From assembly GCA_020852295.1 (NCBI GenBank), contig JADZBC010000009.1:7081-71080 (forward strand): a stretch of DNA of 64,000 nt, written 5' to 3'. The DNA is from a bacterium. GTDB lineage: Bacteria; Patescibacteriota; Saccharimonadia; CAILAD01; JADZBC01. The notes beneath the pieces are model-generated. The model was not told the DNA's origin and ran no database searches. It saw nothing but the letters and a program-made list of their open reading frames with translations. The position numbers and the translations under genes were made by a program. Below, piece after piece: positions 26,679-64,000 of the stretch (the first letter of the stretch is position 1; the number at the start of each line of letters is the position of its first letter).

Positions 26679-26686
26679 ATCTTTAC

Positions 26687-26950: not shown

Positions 26951-27339
26951 TAAAAGTTACCTCCGGCGATTATCAAGTTAAGAATAACCCTCATAGATAC
27001 AAGAACAAACAATCCTGTTATCGAGGTTACTATTCGTTTTTTCGCCGCCTTAATTCCGTCCGGTTGACCCGCAGAAGTAATGAGTTGGATTGAGCTGATA
27101 ATAATAACCAGGACAGCCACCCCGCCGATAAGCCCAGTTACCCAGTTGGCAATCCCGTTAATTAGCATGATTGTTGCGTTTTCGCCGCCCGCACCGCATA
27201 TCGCACTAAGCCCAGGTGTACCTACCGTCACGTTGCCGCATTGTGCCGCATGAGCCGGTGTGCCACTCATAGCAACGAGTAGTGCGCCAATCAGTGTTTG
27301 TAATATTCTACCTTTGAGATTTTCCTGTTGCGCATCCAT
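26950..27339 (-). CDS. VirB2/TrbC-like pilin-family protein, paralog 1 of 6, closest to the divergent VirB6-like operon.
   Basis: Signal peptide ...AMSGTPAHAAQC, Cys pair, then module MLINGIANWVTGLIGGVAVLVIIISSIQLITSAGQPDGIKAAKKRIVTSITGLFVLVSMRVILNL. Confidence 0.55.
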   Translation of the reverse strand: MDAQQENLKGRILQTLIGALLVAMSGTPAHAAQCGNVTVGTPGLSAICGAGGENATIMLINGIANWVTGLIGGVAVLVIIISSIQLITSAGQPDGIKAAKKRIVTSITGLFVLVSMRVILNLIIAGGNF

Positions 27340-27429
27340 ATAGGTATATTCTACGATTGTAAATCGGGCGAGTCAAAGTGAAGAGTTTCGATTGCCCGAA
27401 CACCATAAAAAGTTTATGATGAGTCTAAT

Positions 27430-31728: not shown

Positions 31729-31733
31729 TCACT

Positions 31734-32573: not shown

Positions 32574-32613
32574 CCCTATCTAACCCGTGTGAATTATCAA
32601 GGAGAGTGGAGTT

Positions 32614-38904: not shown

Positions 38905-40906
38905 AAGTAAACTATTTTCTACCGCCAGTATTGCTGTTTTCATAATTTCTTTACTCCTGCAGCCCCTAAACACACTCGCCGCAAGTCCAGAACAGCGCAT
39001 TAATATCGAGCGTCGGCCCTGGTTTGACCCTACAGACATCGCCTGCACAAATACAACCGCTCCAGGCACAAACCAGTCTACAGTACAGCCGGGTCCAATA
39101 TATATCGTCGGCGACTCAGTGATGGATGGTGCAAAATCTAAGGTCGAGCCAACTATTACAGCAGCGGGTTGGCAGCCTAAATTCAACACTCTTGTATCGA
39201 GAAAGCTTAGCGGAACACCACCAAATCCTGATGGTTTTGGCGCTATTGCGCTTGATGGTGATTTTATAAAAACTGCAAAAGCTGTTGTGATCGAGCTTGG
39301 CACTAACCCTTCATCGGAATTCAGTAAAAAAGTACCTGAGTTTGTACAAGCAATAAAACAGCTAAATTCAGCCGTAACTATCTACTGGATTGATACGGCG
39401 AGCCCCGGTAGATCGGATTTTCAAAACCACATCAAAAACGCCAATACCGCTATCTATAACAACTCGACATCTTCGGGTTATAAAGTAATATCTTGGTTTA
39501 AGAAAGTGTTTGGAGATTCTTCTGATCCTCTCAACCCATCATCCACCGCACCAGACACCGGTAAGCTTATTTCGACAGCCGATGGGCTCAACGTTCACCC
39601 TACTGACGCAGGGAAGCAAGCAATGGCTGATATTGTGTTGCAGAATATCGGAGGACAAACTCCGGCACAAGCCGCCATTGCAATGAACACTCGAACCAAG
39701 GCGATTATCGACAGTCAGCTAAAAATACTAGCTGCTGACACCGGTCAGGCCAACACAGCACCAATTGCAGTCCCAGAACCATACGCCTCAATTTTCCCAA
39801 AGGCCGCTGCTCGACACGGCACAGACCCGATATTTCTCGCTACAATTTTTCTCGCTGAGCACGGCGGAGGATTCCCTAATCCGCCACCGCCATACGGTAC
39901 AGGTGGCCGCTGGGCAACGTCAAACAAGGGTGCTAATGGTCCATTTCAGTTTCTCGTGAGTACTTGGGCGGGTAAAAAACAAGATGCCGACAGAATGACT
40001 GTCAAGAAATTCAACTCGAACGAAACAATCGAGGTTGGTGGAGATGGTACAACAGACATTCAGGATCTAGCCGACGCCGCCTTTGGTGCAGCGCAATACC
40101 TTGCCGAGGCAGGTGGAAAAGTGGGGACCCCACTTGGTGATACCGTTAACCCTATGGCCGAGAACACACTTACCTCCGCTATGGTTGCATACAATGCAGG
40201 TGGTGGAAATCTTAACAAATGGAGGAGATGCGGAACCTCGCTGTCCTGTATCGGTGCAGCCGAGACTAGGAAATATGTAACAAATGGAGTGAACTACTAC
40301 CAGCGTCTTGGTGGACAGCTAAACGTTGATCCGGGTGCCACCACTACAAATCAAACCTGTAGCGATGGCTCGAGCACAACTCCTGGCGGCGGGCTCGGTG
40401 TATCTGCTGATGGCTTTGTATTTCCATTGAAAACCACTAAAGCAGTTATCCGGCAAGGAGCAGATGGCGCCGTATGGTGTATACAGGCCCAGAATAATTG
40501 CCACCATGATTACAATGCGGCGGACATTCATGCGCCAACCGGAACGATTGTAGTTGCTGCGAGAGGTGGGACTGTCTTAAGTACGAGAACTGAGGTTAAT
40601 TATGAAAACGGCAATACGCTCCGCATACAGGGTGATGATGGACTTTGGTATTATTACGCACATATGGGGGATGGGACACTGAAGGTGAAAAAGGGCGATA
40701 AGGTGACTGCAGGCCAAGAACTAGGAGCAGTAGGAACTTCAGCAGATGCTCAGGGAACGGCACCACACCTACACTTCGATATTGCAGACCACGAAAATGG
40801 CTTCTCCCGAGGACGTGGCGGTGCATGCGGATTCGAGTGCCAAAACTACCTCATCAATCCACAGCCTGTATTAATTGCAGCATTTGCTAAGTTACCGGAG
40901 AACTAG
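38894..40906 (+). CDS. Secreted tri-domain peptidoglycan hydrolase: SGNH/GDSL esterase, lytic transglycosylase (SLT) and M23 (LytM) endopeptidase.
   Basis: Signal peptide; IYIVGDSVMDG (GDS motif block I); SLT motifs AEHGGG...GANGPFQF...AYNAGGGN; M23 motifs HHDYNAADIHAPTGT...HLHFD. Start set to GTG 38894, which lies 8 nt after AGGAG. The track ATG at 38864 lies inside the upstream gene. Confidence 0.75.
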   Translation: MQTKSKLFSTASIAVFIISLLLQPLNTLAASPEQRINIERRPWFDPTDIACTNTTAPGTNQSTVQPGPIYIVGDSVMDGAKSKVEPTITAAGWQPKFNTLVSRKLSGTPPNPDGFGAIALDGDFIKTAKAVVIELGTNPSSEFSKKVPEFVQAIKQLNSAVTIYWIDTASPGRSDFQNHIKNANTAIYNNSTSSGYKVISWFKKVFGDSSDPLNPSSTAPDTGKLISTADGLNVHPTDAGKQAMADIVLQNIGGQTPAQAAIAMNTRTKAIIDSQLKILAADTGQANTAPIAVPEPYASIFPKAAARHGTDPIFLATIFLAEHGGGFPNPPPPYGTGGRWATSNKGANGPFQFLVSTWAGKKQDADRMTVKKFNSNETIEVGGDGTTDIQDLADAAFGAAQYLAEAGGKVGTPLGDTVNPMAENTLTSAMVAYNAGGGNLNKWRRCGTSLSCIGAAETRKYVTNGVNYYQRLGGQLNVDPGATTTNQTCSDGSSTTPGGGLGVSADGFVFPLKTTKAVIRQGADGAVWCIQAQNNCHHDYNAADIHAPTGTIVVAARGGTVLSTRTEVNYENGNTLRIQGDDGLWYYYAHMGDGTLKVKKGDKVTAGQELGAVGTSADAQGTAPHLHFDIADHENGFSRGRGGACGFECQNYLINPQPVLIAAFAKLPEN

Positions 40907-40907
40907 T

Positions 40908-42188
40908 ATGAACCAACAACAAGAACGCAGGAAGCTAATCATTTATACCGTCCTTACAGTCGCTGCGATCCTCGCGATTTACTGGATTATCCAATTTCTT
41001 ACAACTGGTGAACTTAAAGTCACAACAAGCAATAAATCAGCGGAAATAAACATCATTGACCCCGCCACCGGCAAAGTAAGTCAATTTGTGGGCAAAGGCA
41101 GCGGGAGTATCCGCCTCAAGCCTGGTACCTATACAGTTGAGGCAAAACTAGATGACCGGATAACGCGAACTGGATTCGAAATAGTGACATCTAAGACAAC
41201 AAGTAAGAATTTACAGATTACAGACATTAAGTCTCCTAATCAGTTTTTGTACTACTCAGCAAGTCATCTTCATGCTAAAGATAACATACTCTATTTTAGA
41301 AACGATTCTACCAGGGAGTTTAATAAATTCAACTCTTCTGAATCAGAGCCAACCGTAGTCGAGGAGAGTTTACCAGAGATAAGCACAATCCACTGGGCTA
41401 CTGGGGGCAACCTCGCGCTGCTTGAGACATCAGATAATATTTTTTATTACTTCGAGGATGGAAAAATCCGAGTAGTAGATATAAGTGCACCTAATGGCTT
41501 GCTCTATCCGGACAGCAGCAAACCAGACGAAGCCGAAGAAAGTGACGTTAATAGCCAGATTCTACATGCACAGGTGAATGAACTTGGGGCATTTGCCTTC
41601 ATTGAAGAAGGAAAAGTTTTTTACAAACCAAGCCTGGCGGAGAAGGCTAAGCTTGTTACGAATAGGCAGCTACTGAGCGATTCTATACTCGAACTTTCTA
41701 ACAAAGGGTTAATAGCTTTAGTAACATACGAATCACTGGGGCAGGAAAATATCACTTCTAAGGACATCTCAAAGCGAGCAATAGAAATATACAATTCTAA
41801 GAACAACGAAAAAACAACCTTGTCGACAAAGGAAATTCCTGGATTTATGAGTTGGTCACCTGGCGGCGATAAGTTGGTCTATTCAGACGGACAAAACATC
41901 ATGCTTTACAACGATAACGATAAGTCAACCAAAATTGCCTTAGGTAATCGTGGGGAGCTCTCTACATTCATAAGTTGGATCAACGATGATACTATGATTT
42001 TTCCAGACAAAACTAGCCTATGGAAGTACGAGGTTGCTAGCAACACAACAACTAAGATAGCAAATATCCCTGCCGGTATGCTTGTTCAATCTCTCGGTGT
42101 CGATAGCAACGAAAAAACAGTTTTTCTTAGCACTAAGCCAAACTCTCGGTTCGACGCCTTCGGCAATGTCTACCGACTCGATCTCTAG
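40908..42188 (+). CDS. Membrane-anchored beta-propeller-like protein (TolB/WD40-like repeats). It is AT-rich.
   Basis: N-terminal TM (LIIYTVLTVAAILAIYWIIQF) and repeated motifs IHWATGGNLALLETSDN, WSPGGDKLVYSDGQNIMLYN, TFISWINDDTMIF typical of propeller blades. ATG 40908 chosen 1 nt after the upstream stop. Confidence 0.5.
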   Translation: MNQQQERRKLIIYTVLTVAAILAIYWIIQFLTTGELKVTTSNKSAEINIIDPATGKVSQFVGKGSGSIRLKPGTYTVEAKLDDRITRTGFEIVTSKTTSKNLQITDIKSPNQFLYYSASHLHAKDNILYFRNDSTREFNKFNSSESEPTVVEESLPEISTIHWATGGNLALLETSDNIFYYFEDGKIRVVDISAPNGLLYPDSSKPDEAEESDVNSQILHAQVNELGAFAFIEEGKVFYKPSLAEKAKLVTNRQLLSDSILELSNKGLIALVTYESLGQENITSKDISKRAIEIYNSKNNEKTTLSTKEIPGFMSWSPGGDKLVYSDGQNIMLYNDNDKSTKIALGNRGELSTFISWINDDTMIFPDKTSLWKYEVASNTTTKIANIPAGMLVQSLGVDSNEKTVFLSTKPNSRFDAFGNVYRLDL

Positions 42189-51738: not shown

Positions 51739-52794
51739 TTAGTCTGTCAGTTTTTTGAGTGCTTCCACGCCGTCTTTTACATTTTGGGCGCGATCCTTTG
51801 GGCAGATCAGTATGCCGTTGTCGGTATTGACGACAATGAAGCCCTCCAGGCCTATAGCGACAACCGGCTGCTCTGTCTCCGAGATAATGAGTGTATCTTC
51901 GCAGTCAATCTGCACTGCTTTACCGCGCATGACTACACTATTGTCGTCTCGCAGTATTTCATGAAGGTCGCGGAAGCTACCGATATCAGCCCAGTCAAAA
52001 TTACCCGGCACAACCTGTACGCGATCGAGCTTCTCGATCAGGGCGGTGTCGATCGGTTCATTGGCAAACTCTAGATAGCAACGCTCAGCTTTATTTGATT
52101 CATCAATACAGTCAATGAGTGAGCGGTAGCTCGCATCGAGTTCCTTGTTATGTGCACTGAAGGCCTTTTCGTAGATGGAGATTGGTGCCGCAAATAGGCC
52201 AAGGTTCCACAGGTATTGGTTTGATTTGAGATACTTTCTAGCCGTCACCTCATCCGGTTTTTCTACAAACTTCTCAACTGAAAATACGGGAGTATTGCTG
52301 ATCAAATGGAGCTCCTTGCCCATCTTGATATAACCAAAGCCGGTGGCTGGGTAGTGCGGGGTTAGCCCGATAAGAGTAATGGCCCTACCTTCTTCCGCGG
52401 CTTGTGCAGCAACGGTCGCGGTTTTGCAGAAACTGTCGGCATCAGCGATGTGGTGATCGGCGTGCAGAAAGACGACCGTTTCGTCGGTGGTAATGTGCTG
52501 CTTGATAGTTGCTAGAGCAAGCGCGATGCATGATGCGGTACCGCGTCGAGCTGGCTCGATGATGACGTGGTCATCGGGAATGTGAGGAAGCTGAGCTTTT
52601 ACTTCATCGGCGTGTGAGGCCTCGGTAACGAGGTAGATATCTCTACTCAAGCACTCGGTGCGCTTAATAGTATTTTGCAGGAGTGAATTTTCATCGATCA
52701 GGCGAAGCAGATGTTTGGGGTATTCTGGCTTTGAGATTGGCCAGAGGCGAGTGCCTTGGCCACCACAGATGATCACTACTATCATGTACGGCAT
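51739..52794 (-). CDS. Mannose-1-phosphate guanylyltransferase (NDP-sugar pyrophosphorylase, short form).
   Basis: N-terminal IICGGQGTRLWPIS...P.HLL nucleotide-binding loop typical of ManC/GMPP. There is no C-terminal cupin. Confidence 0.7.
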   Translation of the reverse strand: MPYMIVVIICGGQGTRLWPISKPEYPKHLLRLIDENSLLQNTIKRTECLSRDIYLVTEASHADEVKAQLPHIPDDHVIIEPARRGTASCIALALATIKQHITTDETVVFLHADHHIADADSFCKTATVAAQAAEEGRAITLIGLTPHYPATGFGYIKMGKELHLISNTPVFSVEKFVEKPDEVTARKYLKSNQYLWNLGLFAAPISIYEKAFSAHNKELDASYRSLIDCIDESNKAERCYLEFANEPIDTALIEKLDRVQVVPGNFDWADIGSFRDLHEILRDDNSVVMRGKAVQIDCEDTLIISETEQPVVAIGLEGFIVVNTDNGILICPKDRAQNVKDGVEALKKLTD

Positions 52795-52874
52795 TATAGC
52801 ACTAACCGCAATTTGTCTTGCAATAATAATGAAGCTTTTATGCTATAATGTAGGCCAAGAACGGGGGTGCGCAT

Positions 52875-53408
52875 ATGCCACGAAAAACACAAATCAACAA
52901 AAAAAGAACTCGCATAATCATCATCGGCTCAGTGGTCGTTATTTTGGCCGCACTGAGCTTCCTCGTGTATCGCAAGTATGGCGACACAAAGGTGTCCGTT
53001 TCTCCGTCTCCTGCACCCACCACTCAGACGACCTCATCGCCAGGTAGTGCTTCAGCCCAAGAAAACCCCAAAGATGCTACGCCGACCCCAGTGCCAACTA
53101 CTCAGCCGGGTGGCGGCAAGCAAAGTTTGGTGCCGAACATTAGCAACTACAATGGTGGCGATCCAGTAACGGTCAATGCGGTACTCGGTAAGTCTGGCGC
53201 GGGTACTTGCACCATCACATTTTCTCGCGCCGGGCAGAGTGATGTTGTGCGCAGCGCGCAAGCCGGATTGGTGGTAAACTATTACGGCTGCGGTTTTTCA
53301 GTGCCACGCTCAGCATTTCCGGCTGGTGGCAATTGGAGCTTCAAGGTTAAGTTTGAAAATAGTACATACGCCGGCGAATCGACGCCAATGACGATCGACA
53401 TCAAATAG
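52875..53408 (+). CDS. Membrane-anchored hypothetical secreted protein with a Pro/Thr-rich linker and small beta-rich domain.
   Basis: N-terminal basic stretch plus TM (IIIIGSVVVILAALSFLVY), a PT linker, and a Cys pair in the C-terminal domain. Confidence 0.5.
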   Translation: MPRKTQINKKRTRIIIIGSVVVILAALSFLVYRKYGDTKVSVSPSPAPTTQTTSSPGSASAQENPKDATPTPVPTTQPGGGKQSLVPNISNYNGGDPVTVNAVLGKSGAGTCTITFSRAGQSDVVRSAQAGLVVNYYGCGFSVPRSAFPAGGNWSFKVKFENSTYAGESTPMTIDIK

Positions 53409-53471
53409 GTTTTAGAGGAGGGTGACATAAAACTAGTAAGACACATACCACAAATATTACTCGGCACACTT

Positions 53472-55286
53472 TTGGCAGTGGTGCTTTTTGGTGCCCAGCC
53501 AAGTCACGCGGCCAATGCAGGCGACTTTCAGGCCGGTCGCATCATCGATGATGCTGTATTTACCAATAAGTCAGCTATGTCGGTTAGCGACATCCAGAAC
53601 TTTCTCAATAGTAAGGTGCCGGTATGTGACACCTATCATCCAGCTGGTCCGAGCGCTCAAGGGGCTCAGCCGCCATGGATTTGTCTCAAGAACTACAGCG
53701 AAGGCGGTCGTTCGGCGGCACAAATTATCTATGACGCCGCACAGACATATTCGATCAATCCTCGTGTAATTCTTGTAACGCTCCAAAAAGAAAATGGCCT
53801 CATCACCGATACTTGGCCATACCCGTGGCAGTACCGCACGGCGATGGGATTTGGTTGTCCCGACGGTGCGCCGTGTGATGCGCAGTGGTATGGCTTTACA
53901 AATCAGGTCAATCAGGGCGCTCGACACTTCCGCGGCTTCTTTGACAACAGCCTGAGCTTTGTGCCGTATCGCCCGGGTAATAATTTTATTCAATATAACC
54001 CAAATTCAGGTTGTGGTGGCACTACTCTCAATATCCAAAACAAAGCTACGGCGGCACTTTACAGTTACACTCCGTACCAACCAAATGCCGCTGCACTCAA
54101 TAACCTCTATGGATCTGGCGACGGCTGCAGTGCGTACGGCAATCGCAACTTCTGGCGCGACTACACCGATTGGTTTGGCTCCACCTTACAGCCGAGCTAT
54201 GCCTGGCAATATGTGGGTCAGACGAGCTCAGTAGGCGGCAACTTTGTTGCAACCCAAAAAGCCACCTGGACTTTAACCGCAAAAAACACTGGTACTGCCA
54301 CCTGGACTAATTCTGGAGCAAATCCAATCCGTCTTGGCACAAATAGTCCACGAGATCGCGCAAGCGTCTTTTGTGGGTGTCAACGCGCCGCAACACTCAA
54401 TGAGGCCTCGGTTGCTCCGGGCCAAAATGGGACCTTTACTTTTGAAGTGCAGGCGCCAACTGCAACCGGTAGCTACAAAGAGTACTTTAATCTCGTTGCC
54501 GAAGGAGTTACCTGGCTAAATGACCCAGGCTTATTCTGGGGGGTGACTGTGGTGGCGGCCAACTATTCAGGCACAAAACTGTCAGACTCGTTGCCTTCTT
54601 CTCTCGCAGTAGGCGTAAGTGGTTCGGGGAGCTTAGTAATCCGAAACGACAGCAATGTAGCTTGGTATAACAATGGACGCAATCCGATACTGTTGGGTAC
54701 GAGCAACCCGACCGATCGTTCGAGTGCATTTATCGCTGCAGGGTGGCTAGGCCCTAATAGGCCGACCCGTATGGCGGAAGCAGTCGTAGCTCCAGGTCAA
54801 AACGCCACGTTTAGCTTCGCCCTCAAGGCACCCTCACAGCCAGGTGGCTACAATGAGAACTTTCAGTTACTCGCAGAAGGATACCGATGGTTTGGTCAAA
54901 ATATATCACATCCAATTACAGTAACCGGCCAACAGAACACGCCAGTTGGCACAATGTCCTCCAGTCAAAGTCTAGGTGCGAACCAGGCACTAGTCTCACA
55001 AGACGGGAGATACAGATTGATAATGCAGGGCGACGGAAACTTGGTTCTCTATTCGCCGAGCAGGGCGATTTGGTCAACGCGAACAAGCGGTAAGCCATCA
55101 ACCAGACTAGACATCCAGGGTGATGGGAACCTTGTCCTTTATGGCAACGATGGTCGCTACTACTGGGCATCTTGGACACAGGGTCGTCAGCTTGGCTTTC
55201 TGAATATGCAAAACGACGGCAACCTGGTGCTTTATGACTCTCAGGGACGCCCAATATGGAGTACTGGAACTAGTGGAAGAATTTAG
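53472..55286 (+). CDS. Secreted protein whose C-terminal region carries bulb-type (B-)lectin repeats, downstream of a Cys-rich domain. The true start is probably upstream of the TTG.
   Basis: The three C-terminal repeats LIMQGDGNLVLY / LDIQGDGNLVLY / LNMQNDGNLVLY match the QxDxNxVxY mannose-binding bulb-lectin motif. The frame is open back to 53409, where RBS GAGGAGGG lies at 53415, and the signal peptide reads ...ILLGTLLAVVLFGAQPSHAANA. Confidence 0.7.
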   Translation: MAVVLFGAQPSHAANAGDFQAGRIIDDAVFTNKSAMSVSDIQNFLNSKVPVCDTYHPAGPSAQGAQPPWICLKNYSEGGRSAAQIIYDAAQTYSINPRVILVTLQKENGLITDTWPYPWQYRTAMGFGCPDGAPCDAQWYGFTNQVNQGARHFRGFFDNSLSFVPYRPGNNFIQYNPNSGCGGTTLNIQNKATAALYSYTPYQPNAAALNNLYGSGDGCSAYGNRNFWRDYTDWFGSTLQPSYAWQYVGQTSSVGGNFVATQKATWTLTAKNTGTATWTNSGANPIRLGTNSPRDRASVFCGCQRAATLNEASVAPGQNGTFTFEVQAPTATGSYKEYFNLVAEGVTWLNDPGLFWGVTVVAANYSGTKLSDSLPSSLAVGVSGSGSLVIRNDSNVAWYNNGRNPILLGTSNPTDRSSAFIAAGWLGPNRPTRMAEAVVAPGQNATFSFALKAPSQPGGYNENFQLLAEGYRWFGQNISHPITVTGQQNTPVGTMSSSQSLGANQALVSQDGRYRLIMQGDGNLVLYSPSRAIWSTRTSGKPSTRLDIQGDGNLVLYGNDGRYYWASWTQGRQLGFLNMQNDGNLVLYDSQGRPIWSTGTSGRI

Positions 55287-55334
55287 CAACATTGCACTCA
55301 TCTGGTAAACTAGGAAATCACAGGTGAGGTAAGT

Positions 55335-56399
55335 ATGCAAAAAAACAGTAAGATTTACATCGCGGGTCATCGCGGGCTAGTTGGAAGTGCCATATGGCGG
55401 CACCTAGAAGAAAACGGCTATACGAATCTTGTTGGTCGAACTCATGCCGAGCTTGAGTTGACCGATCAGCAGGCTGTTGACGAATTTTTCGAAACAGAAA
55501 AACCGGAGTTTGTTTTTTTGGCGGCGGCTAAGGTTGGCGGTATTAATGCTAACAATATCTACCGGGCGGAGTTCATCTACTCAAACCTTGCCATTCAAGA
55601 CAATATCGTTAGTGCTTCATACAAACATGGTGTCAAGAAGATGGTCTTTCTCGGGAGTGTTTGTATATATCCAAAGCACGCGGCACTGCCAGTTCGTGAG
55701 GACTGTCTGCTCACCGGTGAGCTGGAATATACAAACGAGCCATATGCACTCGCCAAGATTGCTGGCATTAAGCTAACCGAGAGCTACAATCTTCAGTATG
55801 GCACCAATTATGTTTCTGTGATGCCCGCCAACCTATATGGCGAGAATGACAACTTTGACCTTGAAAAATCGCATGTTATCCCGGCGCTAATTCGCAAGAT
55901 GATACTGTGCAAGCACATCGAAAATGCCGATTTTGCCGAGGCGGCCAAAAACCTTGGGCTGACGGACGACGATGAGGCGGCCGTGCTGGCAGAAGTTGCA
56001 AAATATGGTATTGAGAAGCGGAATAACGAGGTGGTGCTCAAGGTCTGGGGGAGCGGCAAGCCATATCGAGAGTTTATGCACTCCGATGACATGGCCGAAG
56101 CTTGTGTGTATATCATGAATAATGTAGATTTTCCAGATCTAGCCGAGGGGCTTAAAGAGGTTCGCAATACACACATCAACCTCGGCACGGGCAAGGATAT
56201 CTCCATTCGGGATTTAGTAGGTCTCATCAAAGACATCGTCGGCACGAGTGCCGTGATCGAGTTTGACACGAGCAAGCCAGACGGCACCTTCCGTCGCTAC
56301 ATGGATGTAGAAAAAGTTCACGAGCTCGGCTGGCATCACAAGATTGAACTCGAAGACGGACTTCGAAAAACCATCGAGTGGTACCAACACAATAGCTAA
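55335..56399 (+). CDS. fcl: GDP-L-fucose synthase (GDP-4-keto-6-deoxy-D-mannose 3,5-epimerase/4-reductase).
   Basis: IYIAGHRGLVGSAI Rossmann fold, catalytic YALAKIAG (Y..K), SHVIPALIRK. It is collinear with E. coli Fcl apart from a roughly 40-aa insertion. Confidence 0.9.
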   Translation: MQKNSKIYIAGHRGLVGSAIWRHLEENGYTNLVGRTHAELELTDQQAVDEFFETEKPEFVFLAAAKVGGINANNIYRAEFIYSNLAIQDNIVSASYKHGVKKMVFLGSVCIYPKHAALPVREDCLLTGELEYTNEPYALAKIAGIKLTESYNLQYGTNYVSVMPANLYGENDNFDLEKSHVIPALIRKMILCKHIENADFAEAAKNLGLTDDDEAAVLAEVAKYGIEKRNNEVVLKVWGSGKPYREFMHSDDMAEACVYIMNNVDFPDLAEGLKEVRNTHINLGTGKDISIRDLVGLIKDIVGTSAVIEFDTSKPDGTFRRYMDVEKVHELGWHHKIELEDGLRKTIEWYQHNS

Positions 56400-56422
56400 C
56401 AGATATAGTATAATTACTACAT

Positions 56423-57250
56423 ATGGAACAGACGATCGTTATCCGTCCCAAGAAACGCTTGTCCATCGACTGGAAAGAGCTCAGAGAATATCGCGAGCTC
56501 TTCTTCTACTTCGCATGGCGAGATGTAAAGGTTCGCTATAAGCAGACAGCTATCGGCATTGTCTGGGCGGTTCTCCAGCCGTTTATCCAAATGGTCGTAT
56601 TCACGCTATTCTTCAATAAAGTCGCCGGCATTCAGGCTGGTACTCGCCAGGTGCCATATGCGATTTTTTCGTTTATAGGATTGCTTTTCTGGAACTATTT
56701 TTCACAAGCCCTCCAGCGCTCAGCCAATAGCCTGGTCGACAACCAGTCGGTAGTCACCAAGGTTTATTTCCCGCGTATTATTCCGCCGATATCTTCGACC
56801 GTTGTCAGTCTTATCGACTTTGCTTTTGCAGCACTTGTTTTTGTGGGGCTTATGTTTTTCTTCCAGTTCCCGCCGACGGCTTTAGGCCTTTTACTAACTG
56901 TCCCAGCGATTCTCGTCACATTTGTCGCAGCATCCGGCATCGGACTGTTTTTGGCGGCAGTCAATGTGAAGTATCGTGATGTAAAACAGGCACTGCCATT
57001 TTTGGTTCAAACTGGTCTATTCTTGACCCCGGTTATTTATCCTGTTGCTTCGATCCCTCAGCAGTATCAGTGGCTTTTATACCTTAATCCTATGACGGGG
57101 GTCATCAACGCAATGCGCTCGAGCTACCTCAATGACAATCCGATCGACTGGGGTCTGACGCTACTTTCCATTGTGGTTTCAGTTCTGTTGTTTGTAGGCG
57201 GCCTGTATTACTTTAAGGGTCGAGAAAAGGAATTTGCGGATATCATATGA
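56423..57250 (+). CDS. ABC-2-type polysaccharide export permease (Wzm/TagG-like).
   Basis: Six TM helices with ABC-2 signature organization. It overlaps the downstream ATPase gene by 4 nt. Confidence 0.85.
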   Translation: MEQTIVIRPKKRLSIDWKELREYRELFFYFAWRDVKVRYKQTAIGIVWAVLQPFIQMVVFTLFFNKVAGIQAGTRQVPYAIFSFIGLLFWNYFSQALQRSANSLVDNQSVVTKVYFPRIIPPISSTVVSLIDFAFAALVFVGLMFFFQFPPTALGLLLTVPAILVTFVAASGIGLFLAAVNVKYRDVKQALPFLVQTGLFLTPVIYPVASIPQQYQWLLYLNPMTGVINAMRSSYLNDNPIDWGLTLLSIVVSVLLFVGGLYYFKGREKEFADII

Positions 57251-58431
57251 GCAACCCAGTAATACAGATTAAGAATCTTTCTAAGGCCTACATGATTGGG
57301 CACGAGCAGCAGGCAGCTGTGGGCACGATGACGTTCCGGGATACGCTTACCAACATTGCCCGCAAACCGATCGAGCTCATCACGGGCCACCAGCTCAAGA
57401 AGGAAAAATTTTGGGCGCTCAAAGACGTTAATCTCGACATCGAAAAAGGTGATGTGGTCGGCATTATTGGCCGCAACGGCTCTGGTAAATCCACCTTACT
57501 GAAAGTCCTGTCGCGAATTGTCGAGCCAACCGAAGGGGAGATTACGATGCACGGTAGAGTGGCTAGCCTGCTAGAGGTTGGGACGGGTTTTCACCCTGAG
57601 CTAACTGGCCGAGAGAATATTTATTTCAATGGCGCTATCCTGGGCATGACTCGCAAAGAGATAAAGGCTAAGTTCGATGAAATCGTGGCGTTTTCAGAGG
57701 TAGAGAAGTTTCTTGATACCCCAGTGAAGTTTTATTCGAGTGGCATGTATGTGCGATTGGCCTTTGCTGTCGCGGCGCACCTAGACCCTGACATTCTGAT
57801 TGTGGATGAGGTGCTGGCGGTTGGCGACGCGGCATTTCAGAAAAAATGTCTCGGCAAGATGAAGGATGTCGCCGGCGAGGGTCGTACGGTGCTTTTTGTG
57901 AGCCACAATATGGCTGCGGTGCAATCGCTGTGCAACAAGGGGGTTGTTATGCAGAGCGGGAAGATGAAGTATACTGGATCGATTGTTGGGGCTATAGAGA
58001 AGTATAATATTCAAGAAGATTTTTCTAGTGCACTTAAGTCAGCTAAGAATCTGGACTCAAAGGCTGCGGTGAAATCTGTGGAGTTTGGGGGGAATATTGC
58101 CCATAAGTACGGGTCGAAGTCAGAGATTTTGGTAAATCTCAATATAAGAAAAATCCAGAAAATTAGGTTGGTGATAAACTTACTGAACTCTAGTGGGCAA
58201 GTCGTATTGAGCTTTGGGAAAATCTTTCAGGTGGAGGATGGGGATAATCGACTCACACTACAGACACCAAGCCTCCGACTTAACGGAGGTAGCTACCGCG
58301 CCAACCTAGTAGTGTTTGATGAGCAGAGGTCGTCCGTGGAGAACTTTCTGGAAGAGATAGGCGTTGTAAGGGTAGAAAAAAGTGTAATTATCCCAAGTGG
58401 ACTAGAGGAAACCATATATCATGAAGTATAA
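57247..58431 (+). CDS. ABC polysaccharide export ATP-binding protein (Wzt/TagH-like) with a C-terminal substrate-recognition extension.
   Basis: Walker A GIIGRNGSGKSTLLK, signature YSSGMYVRLAFA, Walker B ILIVDEVLAVGD, plus about 140 extra C-terminal residues. Confidence 0.85.
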   Translation: MSNPVIQIKNLSKAYMIGHEQQAAVGTMTFRDTLTNIARKPIELITGHQLKKEKFWALKDVNLDIEKGDVVGIIGRNGSGKSTLLKVLSRIVEPTEGEITMHGRVASLLEVGTGFHPELTGRENIYFNGAILGMTRKEIKAKFDEIVAFSEVEKFLDTPVKFYSSGMYVRLAFAVAAHLDPDILIVDEVLAVGDAAFQKKCLGKMKDVAGEGRTVLFVSHNMAAVQSLCNKGVVMQSGKMKYTGSIVGAIEKYNIQEDFSSALKSAKNLDSKAAVKSVEFGGNIAHKYGSKSEILVNLNIRKIQKIRLVINLLNSSGQVVLSFGKIFQVEDGDNRLTLQTPSLRLNGGSYRANLVVFDEQRSSVENFLEEIGVVRVEKSVIIPSGLEETIYHEV

Positions 58432-59146
58432 ATTACTAAACTACATCAGTCACTATAAGGAGGCGATGCACAATCTTGAAAGCATCATAAAAGACAAATC
58501 TAATAGTGTTTTTGTGCACAACGTGGGCGAGCCCCCTAGGCATATCCGTGAAGATTTTATCTTGAATAGTTGCAAAGGAAAATCGGTATTACATTTTGGC
58601 TTTGCAGACGCACCATTCACTAAAAACAGGCTTAAGTCGAATGAGATTTTACATATTCGTATTAAGAAAGTAGCAAAAAGTGTTTTCGGTGCAGATATTA
58701 ATAGTGCTGCGATCGATGAATACAGGAAGGCTACCAAGGATCTTAATAATGCTGAAATAGATATCACAAAGAAGATTGACACTGGATTATTCAAAAATCA
58801 GAAGTTTGACGTAATTCTGCTCGGTGAAATCGTGGAGCATTTAGATAACCCCGTACAAGCACTACAAAACCTAAAGGAAATATCTGCGAAGGTGTGCACC
58901 CGGGGTTCGTATTTATTAATAACCGTACCCAGTGCATTTAGTTTTGATGGTCAAGTCGCGGCGTACCACGGCTATGAGATTGTGCACCCCGACCATTTAT
59001 ACTATTTTTCACCAGTCACCATAAAAACACTCTTAAGGCGCGCTGGCTTCAGGAGCAGTAAAATCTTTCTATATAGAAGTCCTGTAGATAAAAAGAGCCG
59101 TGGAATATCATCTGCGGGCGTGATTGCAAAATCAGAGATTAAATGA
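58421..59146 (+). CDS. Class I SAM-dependent methyltransferase-like protein (FkbM/Methyltransf_23-like).
   Basis: FDVILLGEIVEHLDNP motif block and overall length. It is AT-rich and overlaps both flanking genes. Confidence 0.5.
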   Translation: MKYKLLNYISHYKEAMHNLESIIKDKSNSVFVHNVGEPPRHIREDFILNSCKGKSVLHFGFADAPFTKNRLKSNEILHIRIKKVAKSVFGADINSAAIDEYRKATKDLNNAEIDITKKIDTGLFKNQKFDVILLGEIVEHLDNPVQALQNLKEISAKVCTRGSYLLITVPSAFSFDGQVAAYHGYEIVHPDHLYYFSPVTIKTLLRRAGFRSSKIFLYRSPVDKKSRGISSAGVIAKSEIK

Positions 59147-60309
59147 AGATACTCCATACAGTCGAGTTTTATGCTCCCTCGATTGGAGGTTCTCAAGAAG
59201 TGGTGCGCCAGATTTCTGAAAGGATGGCGGCAATGGGGCATGACGTAACAGTTGCAACCTCTTTCTTGCCAGAAAGAGAATTCAGCACTCTTAACCGGGT
59301 AAAAATAAAGCAGTTTAAAATCTCTGGAAATGAAGTAAGAGGATATAAGGGCGATGTAAAAGAATACCAGGATTTCATTTTGACTTCAAAGTTCGATGTA
59401 GTAATGAACTATGCCGCGCAAGAGTGGACGGCAGACCTTATTTTTCCATTGCTTGACAAAATAAAATGTCGAAAAATATTTGTGCCATGTGGGTATTCAG
59501 CGTTGAGCGATCCACTGTATTCCGAATACTTCAAAAAAATGCCAAATGTATTGCGCCAGTATGATGCCACCATATATCTGGCCAATAAATATCGGGATAT
59601 TGATTTTGCTAGGCAGCACAAAATAAAAAACATTCACATTGTTCCCAATGGAGCCGATGAACGTGAGTTTTTAAATGACTACGATGGAGATATTCGAAGC
59701 GAACTACGCATACCTCAAGAGTCAAAAATGATTATGCACCTAGGAAGCTTTACCGGACTAAAGGGACAGTCGGAGGCTATTGAAATATATAGACGAACTA
59801 AATCAAGCAACACGGTACTTTTGATGGTGGGGAATGTTTTTAATCAAAGTCTTTACCGCAAACTTAGGATGATGGCGACACGATTTAATCTCACCCCAGC
59901 AAATATCCGAAGCAAGAAGAGAATACTCATAAAACAGCTTGATAGGAGGCGCACCGTCGCCTCACTGAAAGCAGCCGATGTATTTCTTTTTCCTTCAAAT
60001 ATCGAGGCCTCTCCACTTGTGTTATTTGAAGCGTGTGCCGCTAAGACACCCTTTTTGACGACTGACGTTGGTAATGCTCAGGAAATCGTGAAATGGACAC
60101 AAGGGGGCCGGGTGCTTCCAACGAGCTTTGACGGCAATGGTTACGCGCACCCAGAGGTACGTGGGTCGGCAAAAATGCTTGATGATTTACTCTCTAATGA
60201 GAGTGAATGCTCAGCGCTTGCGGGCAAAGGCTACTCGGCTTGGAGTAAAAAATTTAGATGGGATAAGATTGCTTCGCAATACCTCACGCTCTACAAGGGT
60301 GGACTATGA
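59143..60309 (+). CDS. GT4-type (GT1-fold) glycosyltransferase.
   Basis: C-terminal E..EASPLVLFEACAAKTPFLTTDVG, an EX7E-like retaining-GT motif. Confidence 0.8.
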   Translation: MKILHTVEFYAPSIGGSQEVVRQISERMAAMGHDVTVATSFLPEREFSTLNRVKIKQFKISGNEVRGYKGDVKEYQDFILTSKFDVVMNYAAQEWTADLIFPLLDKIKCRKIFVPCGYSALSDPLYSEYFKKMPNVLRQYDATIYLANKYRDIDFARQHKIKNIHIVPNGADEREFLNDYDGDIRSELRIPQESKMIMHLGSFTGLKGQSEAIEIYRRTKSSNTVLLMVGNVFNQSLYRKLRMMATRFNLTPANIRSKKRILIKQLDRRRTVASLKAADVFLFPSNIEASPLVLFEACAAKTPFLTTDVGNAQEIVKWTQGGRVLPTSFDGNGYAHPEVRGSAKMLDDLLSNESECSALAGKGYSAWSKKFRWDKIASQYLTLYKGGL

Positions 60310-61142
60310 TTACTATCAAACTACAGGGTGGACTTGGCAATCAAATGTTTCAGTATGCTGCAGCAAGGTCCCTGGCTCTGCGTAATCACACAGTACCAAC
60401 ACTAGACTTATCTTGGTTTGGTCAAGATTTTGACGACTCGACAACTCCACGACACTATGAGCTCTCCTGCTTTGTGTTAGACTCTAGCACTTCAAGATAC
60501 AAAGGAACTGTGCTGGAAAAGCTGCAGCGTCGGTTTGCGATGCAATATAAGGAACCGCATTTTCACTTTGACAAAGCATTCAAAGCCTTGCCAAAAAACA
60601 CTACTCTAGAAGGTTATTTTCAGTCTGAAAAATATTTTAGTGATATACGAGATGAACTACTGAGTGATTTTTCTTGGGTAAAAGAGGCGAAAGGAACAAA
60701 TAGGGAGCTACTAGGGCGTATCAAGAAGGATGAATCGAGCGTATCGGTGCACGTAAGACGCGGCGATTATGTCTCAAACGAGAATGCTGCAAAATTTCAT
60801 GGGCTAACGGGCCTTGAATACTATAATGCTGCCTACCAGAGAATAAAGAAACAAATCAAAAAACCAAGATTATACATATTCTCAGACGAGCCAGATTGGT
60901 GCAAAAAGAGTTTAAAATTCGATGCTCCAACCATCTATGTATCTCACAATAGCGATGGCTCCGAAGATATGCGACTCATGAAGGCGTGTCAGCATAACAT
61001 AATTGCAAACTCTAGTTTTTCTTGGTGGGCTGCATGGCTCAATGAAAACCCTGATAAAATTGTAATAGCACCGAAGCAGTGGTTTAGCCACTCTGAGAGT
61101 AATACTAAAGATATAATCCCACCGTCATGGCACAAACTATAA
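60306..61142 (+). CDS. GT11-family alpha-1,2-fucosyltransferase.
   Basis: GGLGNQMFQYA, HVRRGDY, and SSFSWWAAWL, the three hallmark GT11 motifs. Confidence 0.85.
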   Translation: MITIKLQGGLGNQMFQYAAARSLALRNHTVPTLDLSWFGQDFDDSTTPRHYELSCFVLDSSTSRYKGTVLEKLQRRFAMQYKEPHFHFDKAFKALPKNTTLEGYFQSEKYFSDIRDELLSDFSWVKEAKGTNRELLGRIKKDESSVSVHVRRGDYVSNENAAKFHGLTGLEYYNAAYQRIKKQIKKPRLYIFSDEPDWCKKSLKFDAPTIYVSHNSDGSEDMRLMKACQHNIIANSSFSWWAAWLNENPDKIVIAPKQWFSHSESNTKDIIPPSWHKL

Positions 61143-62050
61143 AAAAGAAGTCAAAGAAGGGATCCGGTACGCCCCTTGTTTCTGTTGTAATGAGCGTTTA
61201 CAACGGTGAAAAATATTTGAGGGAAGCGATTGATTCCATACTCAATCAAACGTTTATGGATTTTGAGTTTGTCATAATAGACGATGGTTCGACAGATAAT
61301 ACGTTAGAGATCCTAAAGAGCTATAGTGATCCACGTATTCTACTCATTAGCAGGGAAAATAAAGGACTTGTAGCCTCCTTAAACGAAGGGATCGAGATGG
61401 CGCGAGGCAAATATATCGCACGCATGGACGCGGATGATATAAGTCACAAGAAGAGATTAGAATACCAACTGCAAATGATCGAATCCAGTTTCGTGCCAAC
61501 GGTCGTAGCTACTCTTGGACTACTAATCGACGACCAAGGCACAAAAAGAGGCACCTATCTCGTGCCCTATTTGCAGCCAGACTTGGCACGGAGATTTTAT
61601 ATCGGTAATTCTATATTGCATGGATCGGCCATGTATCCAAGGGATGCCGTTCTTCAAAATGGACTGTATTCTGATAGTGTCGGGCCGGTTGAGGATTACG
61701 ATCTTTGGACTAGACTTGATTTACTATCTTTTTCTGTGGTGCCCAAGATGCTTTATTCGTATAGAGTAAATGAGGAAGGTGTCTCTATCCAAAGAAGTAC
61801 CCAACAGTTAAGAGGCGCTAAAATAGTAAGAGATGAGCTTTGGCGCAATAACAACCTTCCGGGGTTACGGCTGTTTGGGCTATGGTCGCGCATAAAAACA
61901 TATAAAACCGTCAATGCACAGATTGTATTCGACCTTTTGAGTGATCAAAAAATGCTCATAAAACAGGCCCTAAAGAGAAACCGGTTCTTCCTGGCCTTTA
62001 AGAATCTCCTCAATTACTTAACCGTAAAGCTATTGAATAAGTTAATATAA
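61127..62050 (+). CDS. GT2-family glycosyltransferase.
   Basis: VSVVMSVYNGEKYL, IIDDGSTDNT, and DADD (DxD). Confidence 0.85.
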   Translation: MAQTIKKKSKKGSGTPLVSVVMSVYNGEKYLREAIDSILNQTFMDFEFVIIDDGSTDNTLEILKSYSDPRILLISRENKGLVASLNEGIEMARGKYIARMDADDISHKKRLEYQLQMIESSFVPTVVATLGLLIDDQGTKRGTYLVPYLQPDLARRFYIGNSILHGSAMYPRDAVLQNGLYSDSVGPVEDYDLWTRLDLLSFSVVPKMLYSYRVNEEGVSIQRSTQQLRGAKIVRDELWRNNNLPGLRLFGLWSRIKTYKTVNAQIVFDLLSDQKMLIKQALKRNRFFLAFKNLLNYLTVKLLNKLI

Positions 62051-62054
62051 GAAG

Positions 62055-62891
62055 ATGAAGAAGAATCGTGAAAAGATAACAGTGTTAATTAACACACTTA
62101 ACGAACAGGACAATATTGTGGACTGCATCAGGTCGGTCGAGTGGGCTGATGAGATACTGGTGGTGGATATGCACTCAGATGATGATACCGTAAAACTAGC
62201 ACAAAAGTTTGGGGCAAAAGTCTTAAACTTTGAAAGGGTGGGCTATGTGGAACCCGCAAGAAACTTTGGCATTGAAAAAGCGCTTAATGACTGGATTTTT
62301 GTAGTGGACGCCGATGAAAGAATTCCAGGTCAATTGGCTCAAAAAGTACGAGATTTAGTTGATGGTAATGAGTATGATGTTTGTTGGGTTCCCGAAAAGA
62401 ATATGGTATTTGGTGAATGGATTCAACATGGGCTATTGTGGCCAGACTATCACCCCCGGTTGTTTAGAAAAGGGTTTATCCAGTGGTCAAGCAATGTACA
62501 TGACATCCCAAAACCAATCGGTAGAGAAACATATCTCGCCGCGGAGCAAGATTTAGCTATTGAGCATTTGTCAAAATCATATGCAACGGTTTCGGGATTT
62601 GTTGATAGTTACAATAGGTATAGCACATTCGAGGCTGATACCCTCAAGCGGCAAGGATATAAATTTCGAAGCAGGCACTATATACTTGTTCCCGTCAGGG
62701 AGTTTCGCAGCAGGTTCTTTAAGCACAAGGGCTACAGGGATGGGCACCACGGCCTAAGACTGGCCCTTCTCTTTGCATTCTATAAATTTCTGGTAATTGC
62801 GAAATATGTGGAGAAATATAATCCCACAATTAATAACGATAAAGGGCTTAAGAAGTGGCAATATCTATATAGACTGCTTCGTGATCGTTAA
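62055..62891 (+). CDS. GT2-family glycosyltransferase.
   Basis: ITVLINTLNEQDNI, LVVDMHSDDDT, and VVDADE (DxD). Confidence 0.8.
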   Translation: MKKNREKITVLINTLNEQDNIVDCIRSVEWADEILVVDMHSDDDTVKLAQKFGAKVLNFERVGYVEPARNFGIEKALNDWIFVVDADERIPGQLAQKVRDLVDGNEYDVCWVPEKNMVFGEWIQHGLLWPDYHPRLFRKGFIQWSSNVHDIPKPIGRETYLAAEQDLAIEHLSKSYATVSGFVDSYNRYSTFEADTLKRQGYKFRSRHYILVPVREFRSRFFKHKGYRDGHHGLRLALLFAFYKFLVIAKYVEKYNPTINNDKGLKKWQYLYRLLRDR

Positions 62892-62911
62892 ATTGTAAAG
62901 GGAGAAGCTAA

Positions 62912-64000
62912 ATGAAAATACTTTTTGAAGGCTCACCAATATTTCGCAATCGATCCGGTGTTGGGCAGTATGTCTATCGCCTACTAGACAAGTTGCTCGC
63001 AATCGACAGGGACAACAGTTACTACATTTTTGGTTTTTTATTTGCAGGTAAAAAATTTCAGGAGCCCTATAAAAAACTACCAAGAAATGCTCGGTATAGA
63101 TTGATACGGCTACTGCCATCAAAGGTGCACAATGTTTTGTCTCGACGACTTTTTGTCCCGCCAATAGATGTGTTGACTGGCATGAAAGCCGATCTTACAA
63201 TTTTCACTAACTTCGTTAGGACACCTCTGCCGCTCGGCAGTAAATCAATTACTTTTATCTATGACCTGTCTTTTATCACTTTTCGGAAATTTTCAAATGA
63301 TAAAAATGCCCAACTACTCACAAAACAAGCAGATATAGCCGCGCGCAAGTCAGATAAGATTGTCACAATTTCTGAAAATTCCAAGAGGGAGATTGTCGAA
63401 GAATACGGCATCAACCCGGCTAAAATCGAGATTGTGCATCCGGCATTGGACCACTCAGTTTACTATCGGCGCCCAGCGAACGAACAAAAAAGTGTCGCAA
63501 AGAAATTTCAGATCGACGGCGAATATATTTTGTATACAGGCACCATCGAGCCAAGGAAAAACATCGTCGGTATTATTGAGGCTTACACAAAACTCCCGGC
63601 TGACTTAAAGAGAAAGTATATGCTCGTCTTGGCCGGGGGGAAGGGCTGGAAGGATGAGGAGATTCGGCAGAGCCTGGCGAAGCACAATGGCGAGCGGATA
63701 ATTTTGACTGGCTATGTTGCCGATGAGGATTTGCCAGCATTATACTCAGGCGCATCTCTATTCGTTTTTCCTACCTTCTACGAGGGCTGGGGAATGCCGC
63801 CGCTCGAGGCTATGGCGTGTGGGGTGCCGGTGGTGTGCTCTGATAATTCGTCACTACCCGAAGTGGTAGGCAGTGCTGCCCTAACCATCTCCGCGAATGA
63901 TACCAAGGCGCTAACGCGCGAAATGACAAGAGTGTTAACCGACAAGAAGCTGGCGGCGAAACTGGTGAAGGCGGTCTACCTGCAGGCCAAGAAGTTTGAC
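62912..64000 (+). CDS. GT4-type (GT1-fold) glycosyltransferase. Partial: the 3' end lies beyond the window.
   Basis: RBS AAGGGAGAAG precedes ATG 62912. GYVADEDLPALYSGASLFVFPTFYEGWGMPPLEAMACGVPVV gives the EX7E motif. It is absent from the ORF track because there is no stop in the window. Confidence 0.8.
   Translation, partial: MKILFEGSPIFRNRSGVGQYVYRLLDKLLAIDRDNSYYIFGFLFAGKKFQEPYKKLPRNARYRLIRLLPSKVHNVLSRRLFVPPIDVLTGMKADLTIFTNFVRTPLPLGSKSITFIYDLSFITFRKFSNDKNAQLLTKQADIAARKSDKIVTISENSKREIVEEYGINPAKIEIVHPALDHSVYYRRPANEQKSVAKKFQIDGEYILYTGTIEPRKNIVGIIEAYTKLPADLKRKYMLVLAGGKGWKDEEIRQSLAKHNGERIILTGYVADEDLPALYSGASLFVFPTFYEGWGMPPLEAMACGVPVVCSDNSSLPEVVGSAALTISANDTKALTREMTRVLTDKKLAAKLVKAVYLQAKKFD

Follow-up and report, generated by a model that had tools for sequence, protein, structure and literature searches.

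The 64,000-nucleotide stretch of contig JADZBC010000009.1 analysed here (the window) ends in a gene group at positions 51739-64000 that we read, with a probability of roughly 0.6, as an ATP-binding cassette (ABC) transporter-dependent surface-glycan cluster, in which a fucose-using chain would be built, recognised by its cap and exported. With the same degree of confidence, the window carries the 5' four-fifths of a Saccharibacteria glycan locus, and the interior cassette of this locus has been exchanged between lineages, with many glycan types set on one conserved framework. The machinery is of a known kind, and what appears to be new is its occurrence in Saccharibacteria: the literature searched on Saccharibacteria combined with fucosyltransferases, Wzt or O-antigen included no account of such a locus.

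The listing of open reading frames (ORFs) together with family searches gave the gene order fcl-wzm-wzt-methyltransferase-GT4-GT11-GT2-GT2-GT4 (GT, glycosyltransferase family) on the plus strand. The features are as follows; bit scores refer to Pfam.

55335-56399, plus strand: fcl, GDP-L-fucose synthase (PDB 7anh, NF047922)
56423-57250, plus strand: wzm, ABC-2 permease (ABC2_membrane, 81 bits)
57247-58431, plus strand: wzt, 394 aa (ABC_tran, 83 bits, residues 58-189), with about 140 aa beyond the nucleotide-binding domain (NBD)
57247-57981, plus strand: NBD of Wzt, residues 1-245, part of the conserved 5' framework (Aquifex aeolicus Wzt NBD 6amx, E 2.5e-64)
57982-58431, plus strand: predicted C-terminal carbohydrate-binding domain (CBD) of Wzt, residues ~246-394, a divergent Wzt_C-type beta-sandwich by fold and profile
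58421-59146, plus strand: stand-alone class I S-adenosylmethionine (SAM) methyltransferase, 241 aa (Methyltransf_23, 44.8 bits), its start overlapping the wzt stop by 11 nt
59143-60309, plus strand: GT4a (Glycos_transf_1, 60 bits; Glyco_transf_4, 36 bits), part of the variable cassette
60306-61142, plus strand: GT11 fucosyltransferase (Glyco_transf_11, PF01531, 138 bits, cut-off 23.9, positions 32-295 of 298)
61127-62050, plus strand: GT2a (Glycos_transf_2, 123 bits)
62055-62891, plus strand: GT2b (Glycos_transf_2, 63 bits)
62912-64000, plus strand: GT4b, cut by the window end, with ~385 aa expected (Glycos_transf_1, 134 bits)

All the genes named in an initial annotation of the stretch (manC, fcl, wzm, wzt, the methyltransferase, GT4, GT11, two GT2 and a further GT4) were recovered as ORFs and assigned to their families. 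The layout given there was only partly right. The genes had been described as all co-directional, but manC lies on the minus strand and the others on the plus strand. Overlaps of 4-14 nt had also been reported; five overlaps of 4-16 nt were found, from wzm through the first GT2 (4, 11, 4, 4 and 16 nt), and at the other three junctions the neighbouring genes lie 23, 4 and 20 nt apart. A scan for promoters and terminators gave no higher count of sites than shuffled sequence, so that it is the overlaps alone that speak for an operon.

In the route that we propose, ManC would supply GDP-mannose, part of which Gmd, predicted past the end of the window, and Fcl would turn into GDP-L-fucose. Working at the inner side of the membrane, the GT4, GT2 and GT11 enzymes would assemble a chain containing fucose on a polyprenol carrier, and the small methyltransferase encoded right after wzt would methylate the non-reducing end, by which growth would be stopped and the chain marked. 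The CBD of Wzt would then read the capped end, and Wzm and Wzt would thread the chain through the single membrane. The steps leading to GDP-mannose and GDP-fucose, and that of recognition and export, rest on family membership and structure. We infer the lipid carrier, the methyl cap and its terminating function, the linkages between the sugars and the destination of the glycan, which may be the wall, a lipid or a protein.

Export system and the C-terminal domain of Wzt

The window encodes an exporter of the Wzm/Wzt type (ABC-2, type V), in which the permease gene overlaps by 4 nt the gene of an ATPase of the Wzt/TagH clade. The top NCBIfam matches of the permease were Wzm/RfbD of galactan export and KpsM, and it is 75-80% identical across all the related loci. 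These loci, five in number and used in all the comparisons of gene content, are L034, L037, L038, L039 and L040. The NBD of Wzt matched also TagH and TarH in the PDB, and the matches of Wzt to the NCBIfam families of TagH and of galactan Wzt had E values of 1e-57 to 1e-60, all of them under the equivalog cut-offs.

The C-terminal extension that had been noticed in Wzt is present: about 140 aa follow the NBD, and this part is, as judged from profile and modelled fold, a divergent Wzt-type CBD. The AlphaFold2 model of the domain has seven strands (predicted local distance difference test score, pLDDT, 85), and the top PDB match of the isolated domain by fold was the cap-binding domain of Raoultella terrigena O12 Wzt (5hnp_A; E 1.2e-6, template modelling score, TM, 0.66). 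The model of the full-length Wzt was best matched by full-length A. aeolicus Wzt over ~404 columns, with an E value of 1e-36 in comparison to 1e-27 for the chains made up of the NBD only. Also a profile of the C-terminal domains of the nearest relatives' Wzt, with the window sequence aligned in, reached the Aquifex CBD (6o14/8dky) at E 1e-15, and 5hno at E 0.077. In structural terms, the model shows a beta-sandwich fused to the NBD and homologous to the solved Wzt CBDs. The Pfam family Wzt_C (PF14524) is present in most of the 120 nearest Wzt homologues; the orthologue in L039 (56% identical) and the L034 sequence scored 24.4 and 24.5 bits, respectively, both under the cut-off of 30.4.

The two parts of Wzt differ greatly in their degree of conservation. 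Identity to the 98 nearest Wzt homologues was 74-87% for the NBD and 7-57% (median 15%) for the CBD, and when 100 Wzt sequences were clustered at 40% identity, the CBDs formed 29 clusters and the NBDs one. A conserved NBD joined to a variable C-terminal domain is the known pattern of serotype-specific Wzt proteins (PMC9445017; references in PMC2943079). A word-based protein search with the CBD alone gave one match, and an exhaustive phmmer search with it (57982-58428) over 1.84 billion cluster representatives gave one true family cluster, formed at 50% identity. Four other phmmer matches, to proteins of 562-5740 aa, were taken as spurious.

The methyltransferase and proposed recognition of the chain end

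The methyltransferase gene follows wzt directly, as had been stated, with an overlap of 11 nt. When the five related loci are compared, L039 and L040 alone share the CBD type of the window, and they alone combine it with the window's methyltransferase (68 and 67% identical, respectively) and GT4a. The other loci have other CBDs with other neighbours: in L034 the CBD is directly followed by FkbM-type and NanM-like methyltransferases, in L037 a weak Methyltransf_23 protein comes directly after wzt, and in L038 two methyltransferases are situated within the cluster. A scan of metagenomes with the methyltransferase produced three loci, of which L040 was the useful one. The CBD type thus appears to travel with the methyltransferase type, which fits a methyl cap read by the CBD. 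Caps such as methyl, methyl-phosphate or Kdo (3-deoxy-D-manno-octulosonic acid) groups halt elongation and are read by the CBD of Wzt (PMC9445017); the reading of a methyl cap has been demonstrated for Aquifex (PMC9445017) and proposed for the Geobacillus surface-layer (S-layer) glycan (PMC2943079).

The same pathway could also work with a differently placed methyl group: the methyltransferase would decorate internal residues or fucose, and Wzt would read another terminal residue, either the GT11 fucose or a sugar added by a cassette transferase. The enzyme has no specific similarity to known terminators, some caps are separate sugars, Kdo for instance (PMC9445017), and fucose is the constant element of the loci, with GT11, fcl and gmd retained in all five. 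A constant fucose cap would, however, lead one to expect a conserved CBD, and yet nothing in the locus varies more than the CBD. In addition, the gene right after wzt encodes a methyltransferase or a similar protein in the window and in four of the five relatives, and the methyltransferase type switches together with the CBD type. We therefore regard this alternative as unlikely and retain the methyl cap as the preferred reading.

The initial annotation had compared the gene pair to a WbdD-type terminator acting with a Wzt CBD. The CBD and the adjacent methyltransferase stand, and WbdD holds as an analogy only: as a homologue of WbdD the protein was rejected, since it lacks a kinase domain, is too short for a coiled coil and resembles WbdD in no detectable way.

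Supply of GDP-fucose

Fcl matched the solved GDP-L-fucose synthase 7anh over its full length (residues 1-351, E 8e-127) and the Escherichia coli enzyme 1bsv with E 1e-98, and an NCBI protein 100% identical to it, on the same NCBI contig as a protein 100% identical to Wzt, bears the name GDP-L-fucose synthase. It is a long form with an insertion of ~40 aa, and because this insertion splits the match to NF047922 in two, the score (425 bits, E 1.4e-127) remains under the cut-off of 500. The Fcl motifs GSVC, YALAK and SHV, aligned by eye, presumably correspond to the Ser/Cys, Tyr/Lys and His sites of E. coli GMER. A gene of the phosphomannomutase/phosphoglucomutase (PMM/PGM) family is present in the window at 2658-3995. 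In L039 (8204-9163, 13938-15074), a different, short Fcl-like reductase was observed (35% identical; NF047922, 312 bits), and GT11 is followed by an inserted Acyl_transf_3 gene; the glycan of L039 may be O-acetylated or built with a different 6-deoxyhexose.

That gmd is not in the window, as the initial annotation had it, was established both from the ORFs and with tblastn, in which the Gmd proteins of three relatives gave no match to the window in any frame (best E 0.47). The tblastn result also rules out a gmd concealed in another frame or as a fusion. The related loci point to where the gene is to be expected: in all five it lies on the opposite strand right after the last GT4. The Gmd proteins of L034, L039 and L040 score 534-552 bits against TIGR01472 (cut-off 415), and the truncated end genes of L037 and L038 are gmd fragments, 62-89% identical to the Gmd C-termini. 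The GT4 in which the window stops is the one that has gmd after it in L037 and L040. By this synteny, gmd is most likely missing because the window ends there, and it probably lies just past base 64000. Patescibacteria encode many glycosyltransferases, and Patescibacteria phages carry gmd and related genes (PMC12911398).

Nucleotide composition and variation of the interior

The segment of about 58.4-63.4 kb had been described as distinctly AT-rich, and its GC content (58421-63400) is indeed 0.414, in comparison to 0.506 for bases 1-58420. The core of the tract, 58421-62891 (4471 nt, GC 0.416), is the window's lowest stretch of that length; same-length stretches elsewhere in the window had a minimum of 0.451 and a mean of 0.505 (sd 0.024). 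A gene-by-gene check agreed with this: the GC content at third codon positions (GC3) is 0.39-0.44 in the five core genes, the mean of the window's genes being 0.526 (sd 0.066). The borders of the tract fall inside two genes. The step within wzt is at 57982, GC3 being 0.608 for the NBD before it and 0.450 for the CBD after it, and that within GT4b, at ~63400, separates an N-terminal half with a GC3 of 0.387 from a C-terminal half with 0.620. These steps at domain boundaries suggest recombination break points within coding sequence.

The comparison of related loci, which had been recommended for the detection of cassette replacement, supports such replacement: the interior genes differ around a conserved framework. 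Retained in all five loci are fcl, wzm, the NBD of Wzt, GT11, the terminal GT4 and gmd, and the content between the NBD and the terminal GT4 and gmd varies. L040 has exactly the gene order of the window, with protein identities of 54-70%. L039 has the first four cassette genes of the window set in the genomic neighbourhood of L034, and the interior of L034 is unrelated to that of L039 despite their common neighbourhood. The identity of L034 to L039 is 58-78% in the flanks and 88-91% in wzm, the NBD of Wzt and gmd. The low-GC interior recurs in L034 (0.35-0.39 vs 0.49-0.52 in the flanks), L039 and L040, and in L037 the GC content of the interior is barely under that of the flanks.

A low-GC tract might also arise from a local bias in mutation, or in weakly expressed genes under relaxed codon selection, the loci then differing through vertical divergence and the loss and gain of genes. 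A low GC3 of 0.42-0.44 is found also at 35.4-42.2 kb of the window, the interior of L037 scarcely deviates from its flanks, and protein identity to the relatives does not clearly differ between the N- and C-terminal parts of GT4b. A bias of this kind does not readily give the window's lowest GC content bounded by sharp steps within two genes. Nor would vertical divergence be expected to place the same cassette (55-74% protein identity) in another neighbourhood in L039 while L034, which shares that neighbourhood, has an unrelated interior, or make wzm, the NBD and gmd of L034 and L039 more alike than the genes flanking them. This explanation is accordingly considered very unlikely, and exchange of the cassette between lineages is the reading kept here.

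No donor of the cassette was detected: the scan of a genome collection with Wzt gave only distant wzt genes (Methylococcales, Bacteroidota, Acidobacteria and Glycomyces), and these loci of distant phyla share neither the CBD, the methyltransferase nor the cassette with the window. Neither was a mosaic seen in GT4b at the protein level, its N- and C-terminal halves being similarly identical to the GT4 of L037 and L040.

Glycosyltransferases and destination of the glycan

The glycosyltransferases range from shared to cassette-specific. GT11 is common to all five related loci (53-74% identity). A GT11 lacking its catalytic residues had been named as a finding that would count against the initial reading; the residues are there, HVRRGD at 149-154 being followed by three further conserved blocks, SDEPDW at 193, EDMRLM at 220 and SSFSWW at 236. 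The HxRRxD motif is critical in WbsJ, and the family includes also an alpha-1,3 enzyme, Hh0072 of Helicobacter hepaticus (PMC4202792). The alpha-1,2 linkage to galactose, with the H-antigen-like epitope and the host mimicry put forward in the initial annotation, is thus one candidate among possible linkages. No solved GT11 homologue was found, which limits the catalytic check to the motifs. GT4a is 67-68% identical to its counterparts in L039 and L040 and 58% to that in L037, and has no counterpart in L034 and L038. GT2a shows 44-55% identity in L037, L038, L039 and L040. The most cassette-specific transferase is GT2b, with an orthologue in L040 only (66.5%). The final GT4 proteins of L037 and L040 each have 385 aa, and GT4b shares 60 and 56% identity with them, respectively.

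Several observations weigh against the cluster being a complete pathway for a capped, fucosylated and exported chain. On the side of recognition, the C-terminus of the window's Wzt has no match to PF14524 even at E<=10, and outside Wzt its matches by fold are to beta-sandwich domains of a generic kind that occur in glycoside hydrolases. Motif I of the methyltransferase, LHFGFADAP, is atypical, with GFADAP in place of the usual class I GxGxG loop for SAM (identical in four orthologues); the PDB matches of the enzyme, by single sequence and by profile, were generic class I methyltransferases with no WbdD chain among them, and it could act on internal sugars or on something else. The joint occurrence of CBD and methyltransferase types comes from three loci and could reflect shared ancestry. 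As to the gene set, no suitably sized ORF of the window matches gmd, which leaves gmd unseen in this genome itself. Among the scanned ORFs of the window and in the related loci that were read, there was no match to an initiating transferase (Glycos_transf_4 of the WecA/TagO type, Bac_transf), to LytR_cpsA_psr, the ligase of LytR-CpsA-Psr (LCP) type, to an O-antigen ligase or to an oligosaccharyltransferase. Low GC, finally, is in itself no proof of horizontal transfer. Genes for the initiating transferase and the ligase are often located elsewhere in the genome.

The missing attachment genes bear on the destination of the chain. Instead of becoming a wall polysaccharide, it could be moved to proteins (S-layer proteins or pilins) by an oligosaccharyltransferase encoded elsewhere, in the manner of the slg clusters of Geobacillus and Paenibacillus, or be kept as a membrane-anchored lipoglycan. 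The window's ORFs hold no LCP ligase, and pilin glycosylation has been suspected in Saccharibacteria (PMC11623550). The gene order, too, mirrors that of the slg clusters of S-layer glycans, in which wzm and wzt come first, the methyltransferase overlaps, low-GC transferases lie in the middle and a nucleotide-sugar gene is last (PMC2943079). Since a gene resembling an oligosaccharyltransferase or an O-antigen ligase is found neither in the window nor in the related loci that were read, such a fate is rather doubtful, and it would touch the destination only, leaving the mechanism of assembly and export proposed above unaffected.

Comparison with characterised systems

Aquifex WzmWzt (7k2t, 8dku, 6o14; PMC9445017) is closest in the exporter itself. 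Like the window's proteins, it consists of Wzm and of a Wzt in which the NBD is followed by a beta-sandwich CBD at the C-terminus, and it was both the best structural match of the full-length model and the best profile match of the CBD family. Its cap is 3-O-methyl-mannose/rhamnose (PMC9445017), and a methyl cap fits the methyltransferase beside wzt in the window. The overall identity is, however, ~31%, and by single sequence the CBD of the window does not match the Aquifex chain; moreover, the Aquifex product goes to the lipid A-core and the outer membrane, whereas the window organism is without an outer membrane. The isolated CBD had its best fold match, over 140 columns, in Wzt of Raoultella terrigena/Klebsiella O12 (5hno, 5hnp), with a sequence identity of 11%; the cap that this Wzt binds is Kdo, and the window locus has no gene related to Kdo.

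The E. coli O8/O9a polymannose systems likewise have modified chain ends and a serotype-specific reader at the C-terminus of Wzt, with a conserved NBD and a variable CBD. Their terminator WbdD is a large protein with a coiled-coil ruler. For WbdD, a kinase (in O9a) and a methyltransferase are described in PMC3482155. The window has only a methyltransferase of 241 aa with no detectable similarity to WbdD, and the sugars differ as well, fucose being in use here.

A capped ABC-dependent glycan in a monoderm has a precedent in the S-layer clusters of Geobacillus (PMC2943079), and it is the S-layer glycan clusters of Gram-positive bacteria that are closest to the window in gene layout. In the slg cluster of Geobacillus stearothermophilus NRS 2004/3a, wzm, wzt and a methyltransferase-bearing gene overlap, the transferases in the middle have a low GC content and a nucleotide-sugar gene lies downstream, and a 2-O-methyl cap has been proposed as the feature read by Wzt (PMC2943079). 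The differences are that the methyltransferase is there a domain of the trifunctional rhamnosyltransferase WsaE and that the sugar is rhamnose (PMC2943079). WsaP, which initiates the chain, and WsaB, an oligosaccharyltransferase, also belong to the slg cluster, and no counterpart of these enzymes was found here.

The teichoic acid exporters TagGH/TarGH and the mycobacterial Wzm-Wzt of galactan export have a related NBD and permease and export across a single membrane. Most of their matched solved chains consist of the NBD only, at 260-280 residues, with no CBD of the Wzt type. The model of Bacillus subtilis TagH (9a4o_B, 527 residues) was aligned over 443 columns with a root-mean-square deviation of 43.9. 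These exporters are not known to depend on a cap.

Significance of the locus

Little is known of the surface cover of Patescibacteria, even though their lifestyle depends on attachment to other bacteria. The locus is a concrete and testable candidate for a surface glycan, with a framework of fcl, wzm and the NBD of Wzt at one end and GT4 and gmd at the other, and an interior that varies as in O-antigen and capsule loci. An interior that varies within a conserved framework suggests that phages, hosts or immunity exert a diversifying pressure. The natural matched sets of Wzt CBDs and methyltransferases could be of use in studying how cap recognition evolves. For annotation, the lesson is that the binding domain of a Wzt can escape Pfam, and that gmd should be sought on the opposite strand at the cluster end. 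A demonstrated part in host range or in immune mimicry would raise the importance of the locus, which is otherwise moderate.

A farther-reaching picture would be that Saccharibacteria, with genomes under ~1 Mb, keep a serotype-like locus for a methyl-capped fucosylated polymer, the cassettes of which are reshuffled between lineages; that the glycan, together with the lectin-domain protein encoded upstream of fcl, decides over host bacteria, phages and animal immunity; and that the CBD, a sequence-orphan family, evolves with the methyltransferase as a matched pair. Taken as a whole, this picture is speculative and improbable.

Genes upstream of fcl and other features of the window

Three genes precede fcl, two of which, between manC and fcl, are absent from the initial annotation:

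51739-52794, minus strand: manC (NTP_transferase, 122.5 bits; ManC_GMP_beta-helix, 52.9 bits; Pfam)
52875-53408, plus strand: 177-aa protein with one N-terminal membrane segment (membrane-like at residue 10) and a Pro/Thr-rich linker
53472-55286, plus strand: 604-aa secreted lectin-domain protein (N_BRCA1_IG, 63 bits; B_lectin, 41 bits; Pfam)

ManC is a mannose-1-phosphate guanylyltransferase without the phosphomannose isomerase (PMI) domain, matching TIGR01479 at positions 1-347 of 467 (E 6e-76), and L037 has a manC at the equivalent place (50% identity). The 604-aa protein consists of an uncharacterised N-terminal region, two Ig domains of NBR1 type and a single C-terminal domain of monocot mannose-binding lectin type. 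It matches NF033557 (E 4e-27) and, in the PDB, the lectin-like bacteriocins putidacin L1 (3m7h, E 2.5e-22) and pyocin L1, and may bind host or self glycans. Directly upstream of fcl, L034, L037 and L039 likewise encode a small membrane protein paired with a large secreted one; in these loci, proteins of 189-190 aa hold the position of the 177-aa gene. The large protein of L037 is 51% identical to the 604-aa protein and those of L034 and L039 30-32%; B_lectin is present in that of L037 and DUF5648 in that of L034, and for L039 no Pfam match is on record.

The nearest relatives by Fcl (80% identity) are annotated as Candidatus Saccharibacteria, and Patescibacteria have been described as monoderm (PMC11665869), so that the absence of an outer membrane assumed in the initial annotation is reasonable. 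Elsewhere in the window lie dnaA, dnaN, recF, yidC, jag and mnmE, as well as genes for a VanW protein, two FemAB proteins and a PrgI/VirB4-type secretion cluster. The two FemAB-family genes are neighbours (6896-8898, minus strand), which fits peptide cross-bridges in a wall of Gram-positive type. The secretion cluster, 26193-42188, is a type IV system of monoderm type with a pilin, PrgI, a VirB4/TraG-like ATPase, proteins of 1432 and 1161 aa and an M23 peptidase; its distal genes at 35.4-42.2 kb have a low GC3 (0.42-0.44).

At 19222-22429 (plus strand), a 643-aa protein with ~9 membrane segments and no family match is followed by a 241-aa GT2, similar to polyprenyl-phosphate sugar synthases (ArnC, PgfS, AglJ-like), and a 185-aa protein; these genes may form a second, extracytoplasmic glycosylation module. 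The first 1000 bases of the window (1-1000) have a GC content of 0.644, the window mean being 0.50, and the ORF at 79-861, with no Pfam match, has a GC content of 0.87 at first codon positions (GC1). In the tRNA cluster at 14527-18424, ARAGORN reported a tRNA of undetermined identity with a four-base anticodon (tcca) at 17281-17356 (plus strand), alongside seven ordinary tRNAs.

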